A DNA stretch of 7,523 nt from a virus. Its lineage: Duplodnaviria; Heunggongvirae; Uroviricota; Caudoviricetes. The stretch covers positions 1 through 7,523 of the IMG/VR virus record IMGVR_UViG_2609460344_000014; one strand, written 5' to 3'. This document shows positions 2,835 to 7,425 of the stretch, piece after piece. The notes beneath the pieces were generated by a model, which did not search any database, had not been told where the DNA came from, and saw nothing but the letters and a program-made list of their open reading frames with translations. Made by a program: the position numbers and the translations under genes. The stretch's first letter is position 1, and each line of letters opens with the position of its first letter.

Positions 2835-3050
2835 ATGTACCAGATGGAAAAAATCACAACAGGTGTGTCATACACCACGTCAGCGGTGGGAACGGGCTAC
2901 TGGTTCCTGCAGTTGCTGGACAGGGTTTCCCCGTCTCAGTGGGCGGCAATAGGCGTGCTGGGGAGTCTGCTGTTTGGTCTGTTGACGTACCTGACGAACC
3001 TGTATTTCAAAATCAGAGAGGACCGTCGTAAGGCGGCACGGGGAGAGTAG
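2835..3050 (+). CDS. S: Class II holin, phage 21 S-type pinholin (71 aa) with dual-start motif
   Basis: Translation [71 protein letters not shown] closely matches S21-type holins as recalled. Two in-frame starts (ATG 2835 and ATG 2844, Met1/Met4) give the antiholin/holin pair. Two TMDs and a charged C-terminus. GGAG upstream. Confidence 0.9.
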
Positions 3051-3053
3051 GTG

Positions 3054-3134
3054 ATGAACCATGAAGAAATGAATCAGCGCTTCAGTCGTCTGGAAAATGA
3101 AATTGCTGAACTGAATAAAAACTGTCGGCGCTGA
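3054..3134 (+). CDS. Tiny ORF, 26 aa (MNHEEMNQRFSRLENEIAELNKNCRR), possibly a leader or coupling ORF or the detached N-terminus of the next gene
   Basis: Starts 4 nt after the holin stop, with GTG 3051 as an alternative start and GGGGAGAG upstream. Its TGA (3132-3134) overlaps the ATG (3134-3136) of the following 158-aa ORF, which has no SD of its own. Too short for the ORF track. Confidence 0.25.
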   Translation: MNHEEMNQRFSRLENEIAELNKNCRR

Positions 3135-3610
3135 TGCCTTCTGAAGATGAAAAAAAACGCCGCGATGAGCAGTTTGCTGCGTTTGACGATTATTGTCGGA
3201 AAGTGATGAGCAGAAATCTCGCAGAGTGTTTCAGTATTCATAATGATAATTTCAGTGAGCTGGAATGGGAGTGTAACCGGCCATCCTTTGTTGTATCCGG
3301 TGATGCTGGGAAAATAACCATCTCAGAAAATGGGAAAGTAACACCTCCATCGCACCAGCACAGTGAGGAGCTCATTGAATTTGCCATTGATTACCTGAAG
3401 AACAATAAAAAGCAGGGGCTGATGAAGCGCGTTGGCCGTTGCATGGGATATCTTCAGGTAGCCGCTGAGATTGAAGCGCTGGCCAGTGGTGCTGATAAGG
3501 ATGCAATTGTGCGGGAGGCTCTTCTTCGTGATTTTAATACTCCACCCTTTAAAAAAGTGCCGGCTTACTGGCTTCATCCGGGGCTGACTTATCTTAAAGT
3601 GCGTATTTAG
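3134..3610 (+). CDS. Hypothetical protein, 158 aa, inserted between holin and endolysin (candidate moron)
   Basis: Uninterrupted 158-aa ORF on the late-gene strand between S and R. No TM segment, no recognisable catalytic motif. Looks AT-richer by eye than S and R (not computed). Start coupled to the upstream tiny ORF through a TGATG overlap. Confidence 0.6.
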   Translation: MPSEDEKKRRDEQFAAFDDYCRKVMSRNLAECFSIHNDNFSELEWECNRPSFVVSGDAGKITISENGKVTPPSHQHSEELIEFAIDYLKNNKKQGLMKRVGRCMGYLQVAAEIEALASGADKDAIVREALLRDFNTPPFKKVPAYWLHPGLTYLKVRI

Positions 3611-3646: not shown

Positions 3647-4180
3647 ATGAACACCAAAATCAAATACGGCCTGTCGGCTGCCGTTCTGGCGCTGATTGCC
3701 GCTGGTGCGCCTGCGCCTGACATTCTCGACCAGTTTCTGGATGAAAAGGAAGGTAACCACACCACGGCATACCGTGATGGCGCGGGTATCTGGACCATCT
3801 GTCGCGGTGCCATTCTGGTGGATGGTAAACCTGTCGTCCCGGGCATGAAGTTGTCGAAGGAGAAATGCGACCAGGTTAACGCCATCGAACGTGATAAGGC
3901 GCTGGCATGGGTGGAGAAAAACATCAAAGTGCCATTGACCGAACCCCAGAAAGCGGGGATCGCGTCATTCTGTCCGTACAACATTGGTCCCGGTAAGTGT
4001 TTCCCGTCGACGTTTTACAGACGAATTAATGCTGGTGATCGCAGGGGAGCATGTGAGGCGATTCGCTGGTGGATTAAGGACGGTGGCAGAGACTGCCGTA
4101 TTCGTTCAAACAACTGCTACGGTCAGGTATCCCGTCGTGACCAGGAGAGCGCGCTGGCGTGCTGGGGTATCGACAGATAA
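3647..4180 (+). CDS. R: SAR endolysin, T4-lysozyme-like (GH24) muramidase, 177 aa
   Basis: N-terminal weakly hydrophobic Gly/Ala-rich signal-anchor-release segment (LSAAVLALIAAGAPA) followed by an E...D...T catalytic triad spacing (EGNHTTAYRDGAGIWT). Pairing with a pinholin is the expected arrangement. No obvious SD before ATG 3647. Confidence 0.9.
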   Translation: MNTKIKYGLSAAVLALIAAGAPAPDILDQFLDEKEGNHTTAYRDGAGIWTICRGAILVDGKPVVPGMKLSKEKCDQVNAIERDKALAWVEKNIKVPLTEPQKAGIASFCPYNIGPGKCFPSTFYRRINAGDRRGACEAIRWWIKDGGRDCRIRSNNCYGQVSRRDQESALACWGIDR

Positions 4181-4269
4181 GCAGAATATTTTGCTGAAAA
4201 ATAAGGCATGGCCACGCGGGCGGATAACATGAAATCCTGCGAACTGGCGAAACGTAAGTGAATAAAAGT

Positions 4270-4308
4270 AAAAACCCCGTTTGTTGGCAGCAAGCGGGGT
4301 TTTGTTTT
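4270..4308. terminator. Rho-independent-type hairpin (aaaaCCCCG, 15-nt loop, CGGGGtttt, then gttttt), potentially bidirectional
   Basis: GC stem CCCCG/CGGGG (4274-4278 / 4294-4298) extended by A:U pairs, followed by a T-run on the + strand. The complementary strand also has T-rich sequence after the stem. Lies about 90 nt downstream of the R stop. Confidence 0.5.
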
Positions 4309-4374
4309 TATGGCAGTAAGCTATGGGAGGCTGCCTTGATTGATTTTAGCAAACTGATTAGGGAGTTGCGACTC

Positions 4375-4470
4375 ATGATTAGTCAATTACCAAACTGGAA
4401 ATTTTTGCTGGTCTGGAGCATCCCTTTTTTATGGGTAGTATCCCAGTTAATTGTGGCAATTAAGGGGTAG
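4375..4470 (+). CDS. Small hydrophobic peptide, 31 aa (MISQLPNWKFLLVWSIPFLWVVSQLIVAIKG)
   Basis: ATG 4375 with AGGGAG (4360-4365) upstream. Predicted single TM helix. First of four back-to-back tiny ORFs between R and Rz. Confidence 0.35.
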   Translation: MISQLPNWKFLLVWSIPFLWVVSQLIVAIKG

Positions 4471-4472
4471 CT

Positions 4473-4604
4473 ATGTCAGACAAACTCATAACGCCGGCAA
4501 AGGTCCTGTGTGTGATTGTCGGTATTTCATTTTCACTAATGCTGGTTGCTCTTTTTCTGTCCCTCGCCTGGGTGATGTTGTCTTCGTCGGGGCTGCTGGG
4601 GTGA
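4473..4604 (+). CDS. Small hydrophobic peptide, 43 aa (MSDKLITPAKVLCVIVGISFSLMLVALFLSLAWVMLSSSGLLG)
   Basis: ATG 4473 with AAGGGG (4462-4467) at 5-nt spacing. Begins 2 nt after the previous ORF's stop. Single predicted TM helix. Confidence 0.4.
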   Translation: MSDKLITPAKVLCVIVGISFSLMLVALFLSLAWVMLSSSGLLG

Positions 4605-4606
4605 CA

Positions 4607-4723
4607 GTGACTGATGACATCAGCAGAGCGCTGGCTTTTGCTATTAAGTGGGTGGCTGTTGGTATTGCTGTGTCTCCGATGCTGTATGGGCTGGCTAAAC
4701 TGGTCATTGCGCTGAAATCGTGA
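4607..4723 (+). CDS. Small hydrophobic peptide, 38 aa (GTG start; ..TDDISRALAFAIKWVAVGIAVSPMLYGLAKLVIALKS), possible paralogue of the next ORF
   Basis: GTG 4607 (alternative GTG 4601 overlaps the upstream TGA). Codon-by-codon alignment with ORF 4735-4821 shows a shared AFAI(K/R)xVA core with synonymous third-position differences (gct/gca, gct/gcc, gtg/gtc). Start and frame are uncertain because other frames here are also hydrophobic. Confidence 0.3.
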   Translation: MTDDISRALAFAIKWVAVGIAVSPMLYGLAKLVIALKS

Positions 4724-4734
4724 ACTTTAAAAAG

Positions 4735-4821
4735 ATGAGTGCTGAACTTATTCGGGCAATGGCATTTGCCATTCGTATTGTGGCCATTGCTGTTCTGGTC
4801 TGGGCAATCCGTTGGTGGTGA
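4735..4821 (+). CDS. Small hydrophobic peptide, 28 aa ([28 protein letters not shown])
   Basis: ATG 4735. Stop TGA 4819-4821 lies 1 nt before the Rz ATG (4823) and overlaps the Rz SD (GGTGGTG). Resembles the preceding ORF at peptide level. Confidence 0.3.
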
Positions 4822-4822
4822 T

Positions 4823-5290
4823 ATGAACCGTGTTCTGTGTGTGGTGATTATTGTCCTGCTGGTAGCCTGTGGTGTGCTTAGTCTGGGGCTGAATCATTAC
4901 CGCGATAACGCCATCACCTACAAAGCGCAGCGCGATAAAAAAGTCAGTGAGCTGAAACTGGCGAATGCCACTATTACTGATATGCAGCAGCGCCAGCGCG
5001 ATGTTGCTGCGCTCGATGCAAAATACTCGAGGGAATTAGCCGATGCGAGAGCTGAAAATGAAACTCTGCGTGCTGATGTTGCCGCTGGTCGTAAGCGCCT
5101 GCGGGTCAACGCCACCTGCCCCGGTACCGTGCGTGAAGCCACCGGCACCTCCAGCGTGGATAATGCAACCGGCCCCCGACTGGCAGACACCGCTGAACGG
5201 GATTATTTCATCCTCAGAGAACGGTTGATGACAATGCAGAAGCAGCTGGAAGGGGCGCAGGAATATATCCGCACTCAGTGCCTGAAATAA
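4823..5290 (+). CDS. Rz: Rz i-spanin (inner-membrane spanin subunit), 155 aa
   Basis: Translation from ATG 4823 ([39 protein letters not shown]...[30 protein letters not shown]) is near-colinear with lambda Rz as recalled: N-terminal TMD plus coiled-coil periplasmic domain. The track ORF at 4739 is a GTG-extended version. Confidence 0.9.
5043..5228 (+). CDS. Rz1: Rz1 o-spanin lipoprotein, embedded in +1 frame within Rz
   Basis: 61-aa ORF wholly inside Rz. Signal peptide with lipobox (LPLVVSAC) and proline-rich mature part ([35 protein letters not shown]), matching lambda Rz1 as recalled. ATG 5058 is an alternative start. Confidence 0.85.
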
Positions 5291-5332: not shown

Positions 5333-6237
<905 letters not shown>

Positions 6238-6244
6238 GGAGGTC

Positions 6245-6853
6245 ATGGTGGATAAGGGAAAAGAGATTATTGCAGTACGAAATGCAGCCTGCAACGAATA
6301 CGGCGGGATAAACTGTGAGGTGCAGTTTGAAGATGCGGTCAATGAAAAAGGAGAGCAGGTATGGCTGCCGTATACCGCAACGGAAACGGATAATACAGAA
6401 CACGGAAAAGCCTTGTGGTCGGGGCTGACAGCAGGAACATACGGAAGTGTGAGTGCCTTTGTTGCCACGGAAGCAATACTGGAAGCGGCAAAGGCGGCGA
6501 AAAGGGAAGAGATTAATATCTGGCGTGATGTGCAGGAGAATATGGAATACGTGATGGAATTCAACGGAAGGAACTGGGATTACGGCAAGAAGACGTTGTC
6601 CAGGATAAGCACGACACGACTGATGGCAGAGAACAACCGTCTTCCGGAAGGGTTTGCCTGGACGGACGGGGATAATAATGTGGTGCCGGTAACGGCGGCG
6701 GAGATAATTGCGCTGGCAGATGCGACAGAGCAGGCGATGTTTGCGAAAGGTGTGGAGATTAATACACGTCAGCTTCAGATGAAAGCAGAGGTTGAGGCGC
6801 TGACAGAGCTGAAGGCGATCCGCAGTTATGTTGTCGGATGGCCTGCAAGCTGA
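6245..6853 (+). CDS. Probable tail-fibre assembly (chaperone-like) protein, 202 aa
   Basis: Begins 8 nt after the tail-fibre stop, with GAGGAGG (6236-6242) overlapping that stop; GTG 6248 is an alternative start. Position immediately 3' of a tail-fibre gene and size are typical of tfa genes. Family assignment is from context and general resemblance, not a search. Confidence 0.5.
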   Translation: MVDKGKEIIAVRNAACNEYGGINCEVQFEDAVNEKGEQVWLPYTATETDNTEHGKALWSGLTAGTYGSVSAFVATEAILEAAKAAKREEINIWRDVQENMEYVMEFNGRNWDYGKKTLSRISTTRLMAENNRLPEGFAWTDGDNNVVPVTAAEIIALADATEQAMFAKGVEINTRQLQMKAEVEALTELKAIRSYVVGWPAS

Positions 6854-6855
6854 GT

Positions 6856-6884
6856 AAAAAAAACGGGACCACGGCCAGTCCCGG
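6856..6884 (-). terminator. Hairpin (CGGGAC, 8-nt loop, GTCCCG) flanked by an A8 tract: canonical intrinsic terminator for minus-strand transcription, possibly bidirectional
   Basis: Stem 6864-6869 / 6878-6883. On the minus strand the hairpin is followed directly by UUUUUUUU (complement of 6856-6863). On the + strand a T-run (6894-6899) follows after about 10 nt. Sits between the convergent tfa-like gene and ykgJ-like gene. Confidence 0.5.
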
Positions 6885-6997: not shown

Positions 6998-7327
6998 TCA
7001 GATTTTGGGAAATCCATATTTTTCCCGTGCGCGGTTACATGCTTCATTCGCGATGCCATTTTCGCCGGACATTGCGAATTCCCTGCATGTGGACGGACGG
7101 TTTTTGTAAACAGAGCAATATGCGTTTTCACCGGGGGGGCCGGCCAGAGCGACACATCGGGGATTTTTCTGATTGGTGCCGCGCATACAGCGATGAAAAG
7201 GAGATATTTGCTCAGTGAGACTGACCGGGACGTTTCCGCCAGCATCATCGGCTTCAGCCCAGTAAAAAGAGACGCGGAAAAATGCACAACAGGCACCACA
7301 CGTCATGCATGGATTCGGATTGTTCAT
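6998..7327 (-). CDS. ykgJ: YkgJ-family cysteine-cluster protein (putative zinc/iron-chelating CxxCxxCC domain), 109 aa
   Basis: Minus-strand ORF; start at the internal Met ([28 protein letters not shown]...) gives 109 aa with the CMTCGACC motif, matching E. coli YkgJ in length and motif as recalled. The track ORF extends to 7384 ([19 protein letters not shown]... extension), but that upstream ATG has GGAG only 1 nt away. Confidence 0.75.
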
Positions 7328-7425
7328 TTTTATACTATTTGTTGTTTTTTCAGCGATCAGATAAAAGGGCGCTGAAAAAAACATTCTCCAAAATTAGATT
7401 ATAACTATTTGATTTTATGGATAGA

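Follow-up and report, generated by a model that had tools for sequence, protein, structure and literature searches.

A hairpin with the appearance of an intrinsic terminator lies between the endolysin gene R and the spanin genes Rz/Rz1 of the window examined here (the whole 7,523-nt stretch of DNA), raising the question of how Rz and Rz1 can be expressed together with the rest of the lysis cassette when a terminator precedes them on the same strand. The initial annotation offered a partial attenuator, the boundary of an inserted cassette, or the 3′ end of an antisense transcript as possible answers. The window comprises late-region DNA of a lambdoid prophage of E. coli that resembles Stx phages, with the following features:

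178–2121: NanS-p-type esterase (ORF list and Pfam)
Between the esterase and the holin: DUF826 gene (ORF list and Pfam)
2835–3050: class II (S21-like) holin (ORF list and Pfam)
3134–3610: 158-aa ORF matching phrog_1085, function unknown, with no Pfam match
3647–4180, plus strand: R, a SAR-type, RrrQ-like endolysin of 177 aa (Phage_lysozyme, PF00959), with its stop codon at 4178–4180
4181–4270, plus strand: untranslated spacer, the R 3′ UTR (column variability)
4271–4303, plus strand: putative terminator hairpin (terminator scan, RNA fold and variability)
4337–4821, plus strand: four small peptide genes, A–D (ORF list)
4823–5290, plus strand: Rz spanin (Phage_lysis, PF03245), with Rz1 embedded at 5043–5228

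R is identical to K-12 RrrQ at 158 of its 177 residues (89%). The N-terminus of the holin, MYQMEK, contains two Met codons three codons apart, reminiscent of the dual-start holin/antiholin motif known from S21-type pinholins, and the position between holin and endolysin, occupied here by the ORF at 3134–3610, holds a YdfR-family gene in relatives. The esterase–holin interval is the position of the PasA/PasC sRNAs in other prophages, with the PasA sequence absent here, and contains the sole plus-strand promoter-like site of the window (region 2242–2452; TTGACC, an 18-nt spacer and AATAAT), directly preceding a 60-aa hydrophobic ORF at 2270–2452. Because similarity to intact prophage late regions stops near 5383, followed by a startless collagen-like tail-fibre fragment within 5383–6244, this copy of the prophage is truncated, with the terminase-to-tail genes lost. 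A 45-bp unit repeated 8.9 times at 5566–5966 encodes 15-residue protein repeats, and a tail-fibre-assembly-like ORF lies at 6245–6853.

The stem-loop at 4271–4303 reads AAAACCCCGTTTGTT-GGC-AGCAAGCGGGGTTTT, followed by GTTTTT up to 4309 and preceded by AAAGTAAAAA, with a stem of 15 bp that includes four A-U and six G-C pairs, a G+C-rich core at 4275–4299, and a 3-nt apical loop (GGC). The tracts on either side of it are:

4265–4274, plus strand: A tract AAAGTAAAAA, which pairs with the four leading Ts of the tail and is a U tract on the minus strand
4300–4309, plus strand: T tract TTTTGTTTTT, the last segment common to prophages with differing cargo

Folding of 4265–4312 as plus-strand RNA gives −21.1 kcal/mol (z = −4.83), with none of 200 shuffles as stable, and the core at 4275–4299 alone folds at −15.6 kcal/mol. 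The stem followed by UUUUGUUUUU on its 3′ side is canonical terminator anatomy, and the hairpin ranks first when the entire window is scanned for terminators (15 pairs, six of them G-C). A d’Aubenton-Carafa-type terminator score (d) reaches 28.2 with a tail score of 4.67, making this the sole plus-strand site with d > 10 in the 7.5 kb. The hairpin thereby combines the properties expected of an intrinsic terminator, namely a stable G+C-rich stem-loop, a U-rich tract directly 3′ of the stem, and a location in untranslated RNA past a stop codon, beginning 91 nt after that of R; the ORFs that cross it have frames that are not conserved among relatives. Judged by this anatomy, the hairpin is most likely a genuine Rho-independent terminator for the plus (late-operon) strand, and would be expected to terminate unmodified polymerase in vivo. 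The terminator-like hairpin with a GC stem and A and T tracts that the initial annotation placed at 4270–4308 is thus borne out, as is its spacing of about 500 bp to Rz, which starts at 4823, 514 nt beyond the T tract, whilst the folding energy of 4265–4312 answers the objection of weak stability; the description of the hairpin as lying just after the endolysin stop, however, overlooks the 91 nt between them. A second strong terminator-like hairpin is present on the minus strand at 6864–6883 (CGGGACTGGCCGTGGTCCCG then T8, d = 31), downstream of the minus-strand ORF at 6998–7384.

To which of its neighbours the hairpin belongs can be read from about 200 related prophage loci, compared in two sets: 80 IMG/VR loci anchored on the R protein (≥95% identity) and classed by the length of the R–Rz interval, and 119 hairpin-anchored loci, 116 of them with enough upstream sequence. 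An R of the SAR-endolysin type lies at a fixed distance upstream in all 116 (stop codon 91–92 nt ahead of the point where the search pattern begins), with the hairpin 91–95 nt past the R stop and its core at 94–95 nt in every peptide class. The R–Rz interval overall ranges from 0 to ~1.4 kb, and the distance from hairpin to Rz takes at least 14 values in the hairpin-anchored set. The interval classes comprise:

0 nt: R overlaps Rz (locus L073)
298 nt: one peptide
336 nt: one peptide
438 nt: two peptides
~487 nt: two peptides
642 nt: four peptides (the locus in the window)
~993 nt: antirepressor gene (ant) and one peptide

These classes share sequence as far as CGGGGTTTTGT and diverge beyond, and in a search whose query positions 1–210 correspond to window 4100–4309, homology between prophages breaks right after the T tract, placing a mosaic junction at 4309/4310. 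Given the fixed distance from R, the almost invariant stem and the homology break past the T tract, the hairpin closes the R module at its 3′ end and borders a variable cargo slot on the left, and is not part of the peptide cassette. The inserted-cassette boundary envisaged in the initial annotation therefore stands in part, in that homology breaks at 4309/4310 and at least 10 cargo sets follow, but the hairpin travels with R and not with the peptide cluster. The co-absence of the hairpin with the 4310–4822 segment, also raised there, holds where R abuts Rz, with 4181–4822 wholly absent from L073, K-12 Qin, and EPEC PP2, PP4 and PP5, but not across the hairpin-bearing cargo sets, in which the hairpin is linked to R. 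Where R directly adjoins Rz the prophage lacks a terminator altogether, and the element is therefore dispensable. In the ant class (VT2-Sakai, Sakai Sp10/Sp11 and P13353), the spacer is common up to ~4268 and is then replaced by unrelated sequence, with the hairpin absent; an equivalent terminator in this class was considered and rejected, the substitute in VT2-Sakai folding at −6.6 kcal/mol, with stronger ones in a few others. Descent of the spacer from the Qin Rz gene was also rejected, with K-12 homology stopping at 4190.

The 129-nt spacer plus hairpin has 3175 occurrences, spread over 1980 of 5426 complete E. coli genomes (~36%), with up to seven copies per genome, and seven of the 10 RefSeq matches listed carry no annotation beneath it. 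A degenerate hairpin pattern searched against species-representative genomes returned mostly unrelated generic terminators (e.g. in Hymenobacter) and one Escherichia match, and is uninformative on the range beyond Escherichia.

Among 37 unique spacer-plus-hairpin sequences, the 13-bp conserved stem shows 0.31 minority sequences per column, compared with 2.6 in the spacer and 3.7 at the apical positions, making the stem ~8-fold less variable than the spacer average whilst the apical loop varies freely (three and two states at positions 4289–4290). Most stem changes in the plus-strand RNA either retain the pair as G-U or turn an existing U-G wobble into U-A, and the common hairpin variants of other prophages fold at −18.9 to −21.6 kcal/mol. 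The stem is weakened or altered in about 8 of the 80 R-anchored loci, with the commonest such variant, CGAGG (six loci), folding at −12 kcal/mol with d = −18. Compensatory double changes in the stem are absent among the 37 unique sequences, leaving covariation silent either way, and some stretches of the spacer vary as little as the stem does; stem conservation alone is therefore no proof of selection for structure. The spacer consists of invariant blocks and hypervariable patches (4203–4220 and 4247–4254), in which near-identical prophages show as many as four states per column, and neither a coding nor a pairing explanation for these patches was supported. RNAalifold predicts only invariant mini-hairpins in the spacer, with a covariation term of −0.13 kcal/mol, and a hand-picked helix between 4204–4208 and 4251–4255, whilst containing one apparently compensatory pair, performed no better than shuffles. 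A 17-codon ORF at 4209–4262 was dismissed as a conserved gene or leader, its ATG being gone in most variants, as were a 24-codon ORF ending 8 nt before the A tract and an extension ORF from GTG-4258, neither of which is conserved in start or frame.

Beyond the junction, the cargo of the window consists of:

4337–4470, plus strand: peptide A, TTG start
4473–4604, plus strand: peptide B
4601–4723, plus strand: peptide C, GTG start
4720–4821, plus strand: peptide D, GTG start, adjoining the Rz ATG

Situated between the SAR endolysin and Rz, these peptides are 33–44 aa long with a single TM each, and match PHROG 6632, 4906, and 1115/4493/3246, all of unknown function, with a Pfam search of A–D giving no match. 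C and D are paralogues, and the peptide modules are recombined in relatives as A′, D′, C+D, C+B, and ant+B′. Related loci carry at least 10 alternative cargo sets between the hairpin and Rz; in L115 and L125 the order is hairpin, C, B, a 311-aa DNA methyltransferase and Rz, in L002 ant occupies the slot (1852–2421), and in L203 the slot is IS-disrupted. The position just downstream of the hairpin is thus a hot spot for cargo, and peptides A–D, as plausible lysis modulators or lysogen-benefit genes, may be of more practical interest than the hairpin itself.

The arrangement of these genes bears directly on how they can be expressed. Stops and starts overlap or adjoin at the junctions of B, C, and D (TAGCTATG, GTGA, and GTGA), D ends in TGATATG at the Rz start, and this layout couples the peptide genes translationally to one another and to Rz. 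The GGGAGG Shine-Dalgarno sequence of peptide A follows the T tract after a gap of only 21 nt, and a promoter scan found no plus-strand promoter-like site between 4310 and Rz (4823). The separate regulation initially suggested for the cassette finds no support in this short distance, the lack of a plus-strand promoter-like site from 4310 to Rz, and the overlapping genes. With no promoter, nor room for one ahead of peptide A, and with the peptides coupled to Rz, expression downstream of the hairpin requires read-through.

Transcription arriving from the opposite direction offers another possible use for the hairpin, as a minus-strand terminator ending an antisense RNA of ~175 nt to peptide A in the style of a type I toxin-antitoxin system, initiated for example at the promoter-like site at 4479–4450. 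The A tract reads UUUUUACUUUU on that strand, the minus-strand fold of 4265–4312 still reaches −14.2 kcal/mol (z = −3.06), the cargo codes for small hydrophobic peptides, and the CGAGG variant retains pairing on the minus strand only. However, the two U-G wobbles of the plus-strand stem become C-A mismatches on the minus strand, resulting in a much weaker terminator, with d = 0.15 compared with 28.2. For a bidirectional terminator the picture is mixed, with a U tract present on the minus strand but a fold of only −14.2 kcal/mol and the C-A mismatches. Whilst 4479–4450 is the single minus-strand promoter-like match, promoter-like matches number three against 6.0 ± 2.7 expected by chance, and this one lies at the A/B gene junction, which exists in the 642-nt class only, whereas the hairpin is present in all peptide classes. 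Inspection by eye in two cargo classes, up to 100 nt rightward of the hairpin, revealed no convincing minus-strand promoter, and no antisense RNA of the locus is named among the EPEC RIL-seq entries listed, which derive from non-induced cells. Between the difference in d, a promoter-like match at chance level, and no RNA named, the antisense 3′ end put forward in the initial annotation is disfavoured, and we regard it as highly doubtful.

How the plus strand is read past the hairpin is suggested by the biology of lambdoid late operons. RNA polymerase modified by Q at pR′ ignores intrinsic terminators, as in lambda, phage 21, and phage 82. The late transcript, including the lysis genes, is antiterminated by Q (PMC7547250), and late operons carry the terminators of the embedded sRNA genes AsxR/AgvB, PasA/C, and HnrS (PMC4104026; 10.64898/2026.05.13.724894; PMC13502914). 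Prophage PP6 of EPEC E2348/69 contains the same locus at 98% identity, with a co-directional Q antiterminator gene 5 kb upstream, and its lysis genes are almost silent in non-induced cells. One copy of the hairpin lies in NC_011601 at ~1448281–1448319. By analogy with these operons, the paradox of Rz/Rz1 co-expression past a terminator is most likely resolved by Q antitermination. The hairpin is of an ordinary kind, if slightly unusual in its placement, and is not surprising there, as it is most likely read through by the Q antiterminator during lysis.

The explanation we favour, and consider probable, is that this Rho-independent plus-strand terminator forms the 3′ terminus of the R module in a widespread Qin/Stx-phage-like prophage family, is bypassed by Q, and doubles as a mosaic junction. 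In the lysogen, ordinary RNA polymerase straying into the lysis genes, whether by leakage through tR′ or from promoters of upstream accessory genes, would be released at the hairpin, and the cargo, the spanins, and everything further downstream would stay silent. Upon induction, Q-loaded polymerase from pR′ would pass the hairpin, as the behaviour of lambda, phage 21, and phage 82 leads us to expect, and Rz/Rz1 and the small peptides, with no promoter of their own, would be co-expressed with S and R. Over evolutionary time, the point past the T tract has become a tolerated insertion and recombination junction for varied cargo because the hairpin site is neutral for late expression.

A neutral origin has also to be weighed, in which an accessory gene formerly present after R left its terminator behind as the hairpin and its decayed 3′ end as the spacer, and no role is selected today, the element persisting because Q makes it harmless and because of its position at a recombination junction. 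Hypervariable patches in the spacer and the non-conserved 24-codon ORF ending 8 nt before the A tract would fit such decay, as would the absence of the hairpin from the ant class and from prophages whose R adjoins Rz directly, and its weakening in about 8 of 80 loci. This is difficult to reconcile, however, with a stem ~8-fold less variable than the spacer average around a loop free to vary, with stem changes that mostly keep pairing in the plus-strand RNA, and with retention of the hairpin, found in 36% of complete E. coli genomes, beside more than 10 cargo sets, making a relic unlikely. The partial attenuator of the initial annotation, or equally an mRNA 3′ stabiliser, would have lytic transcripts partly ending or being trimmed at the hairpin by design, with the S–R message exceeding the spanin message and so helping to set the stoichiometry of lysis. 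A strong hairpin in an untranslated 156-nt gap of an otherwise tightly packed cassette would suit this role, and EPEC counts do fall from R to Rz (baseMean 1.9 for R, 0.87 for E2348C_1414, and 0.12 for Rz), however these come from non-induced cells in which the lysis genes are near-silent, and are too low for a real step-down. Furthermore, the consensus fold contains no competing antiterminator helix, no leader peptide is conserved, Q-modified polymerase is well established to ignore intrinsic terminators, and many relatives lyse without any R–Rz gap, leaving programmed attenuation quite improbable.

The spacer and terminator together (~125 nt, or a processed part) might alternatively be released from the R 3′ UTR as an Hfq-binding regulatory RNA. 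The U-tailed terminator follows AAUAAAAGUAAAAAC, five A-R-N triplets of the kind described as the Hfq distal-face motif (PMC4104026), the spacer contains invariant single-stranded blocks, and sRNAs are frequent in the late regions of such prophages. Against this, an Rfam scan of the whole window gave no matches at E ≤ 1, the promoter scan found no plus-strand promoter nearby, and the spacer shows no structural covariation (−0.13 kcal/mol). The Hfq-CRAC peaks listed include none beside the 3′ end of R in Sp10 or Sp11, the two Sakai prophages located, which, both being of the ant type, cover the shared spacer and not the hairpin, and no RNA from E2348C_1412–1415 is named among the EPEC RIL-seq entries listed, again from non-induced cells. 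Known HnrS and PasA/C RNAs map elsewhere, and identity of the hairpin with any of them was rejected: PasA/PasC lie between the esterase and holin genes, with the PasA sequence absent from the window, HnrS/EcOnc10-12 lie after Rz on the opposite strand, and AgvB and AsxR gave no match. On balance, an sRNA seems very improbable here. A bolder form of the idea, to which we attach a low probability, is that 4181–4309 is cut or terminated on induction as a stable, U-tailed, Hfq-type trans-acting RNA carrying (ARN)5, or, equivalently, that the hairpin has been selected as a “Q-only gate” creating a slot for peptides that tune the SAR endolysin and the spanins.

The favoured explanation, of a Q-bypassed R-module terminator, leaves current understanding intact, with nothing in the hairpin findings overturning it. 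For annotation, the hairpin provides a recurrent landmark, unannotated in most of the RefSeq matches listed, at the point where the RrrQ-type endolysin module gives way to a cargo slot. To phage biology it offers an illustration of how an intrinsic terminator can sit harmlessly within an essential lysis cassette, thanks to antitermination of the operon, and of how such neutral points become mosaic junctions.

The locus shares with the morons of lambdoid phages, described in the account of Juhala et al. (2000) cited in PMC4104026 as accessory DNA between conserved late genes with a stem-loop terminator at the junction, the slotting of variable DNA between conserved late genes with a stem-loop at the junction. 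Presence or absence between collinear phages is also observed, with an interval of 0 to ~1.4 kb and at least 10 cargo sets. In contrast to a classical moron, which has its own promoter and a terminator after the cargo, the segment from 4310 to 4823 contains no plus-strand promoter-like site, the peptides being promoterless and coupled to Rz, and the hairpin comes before the cargo, its linkage to R holding in 116 of 116 loci. Bidirectional Rho-independent terminators resemble the hairpin in having an upstream A tract, a downstream T tract, and a near-palindromic stem, however the flanking genes here are co-directional rather than convergent, and the minus-strand version is much weaker. HnrS (EcOnc10-12) and PasA/PasC are likewise short, terminator-ended late-region elements of the same family, multicopy in pathogenic E. 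coli, but they occupy other positions, HnrS directly after Rz and on the other strand, PasA/C in the esterase–holin interval, and neither has a sequence match in the window. Compared with lambda, phage 21-like, and Qin-type cassettes, in which R and Rz abut or overlap, the hairpin here stands between the two genes. Unlike the terminators of the sRNAs embedded in Stx phages, it ends no known sRNA. With the Q-antiterminated terminators of late operons, including lambda tR′ and those downstream of it as well as the Stx-phage sRNA terminators, it has in common a G+C-rich stem and a U tract; those of lambdoid late operons are likewise co-directional with the late genes, lie downstream of pR′ and Q, and must be read through for late genes to be expressed, with the AsxR/AgvB, PasA/C, and HnrS work concerning the same prophage family as the window.
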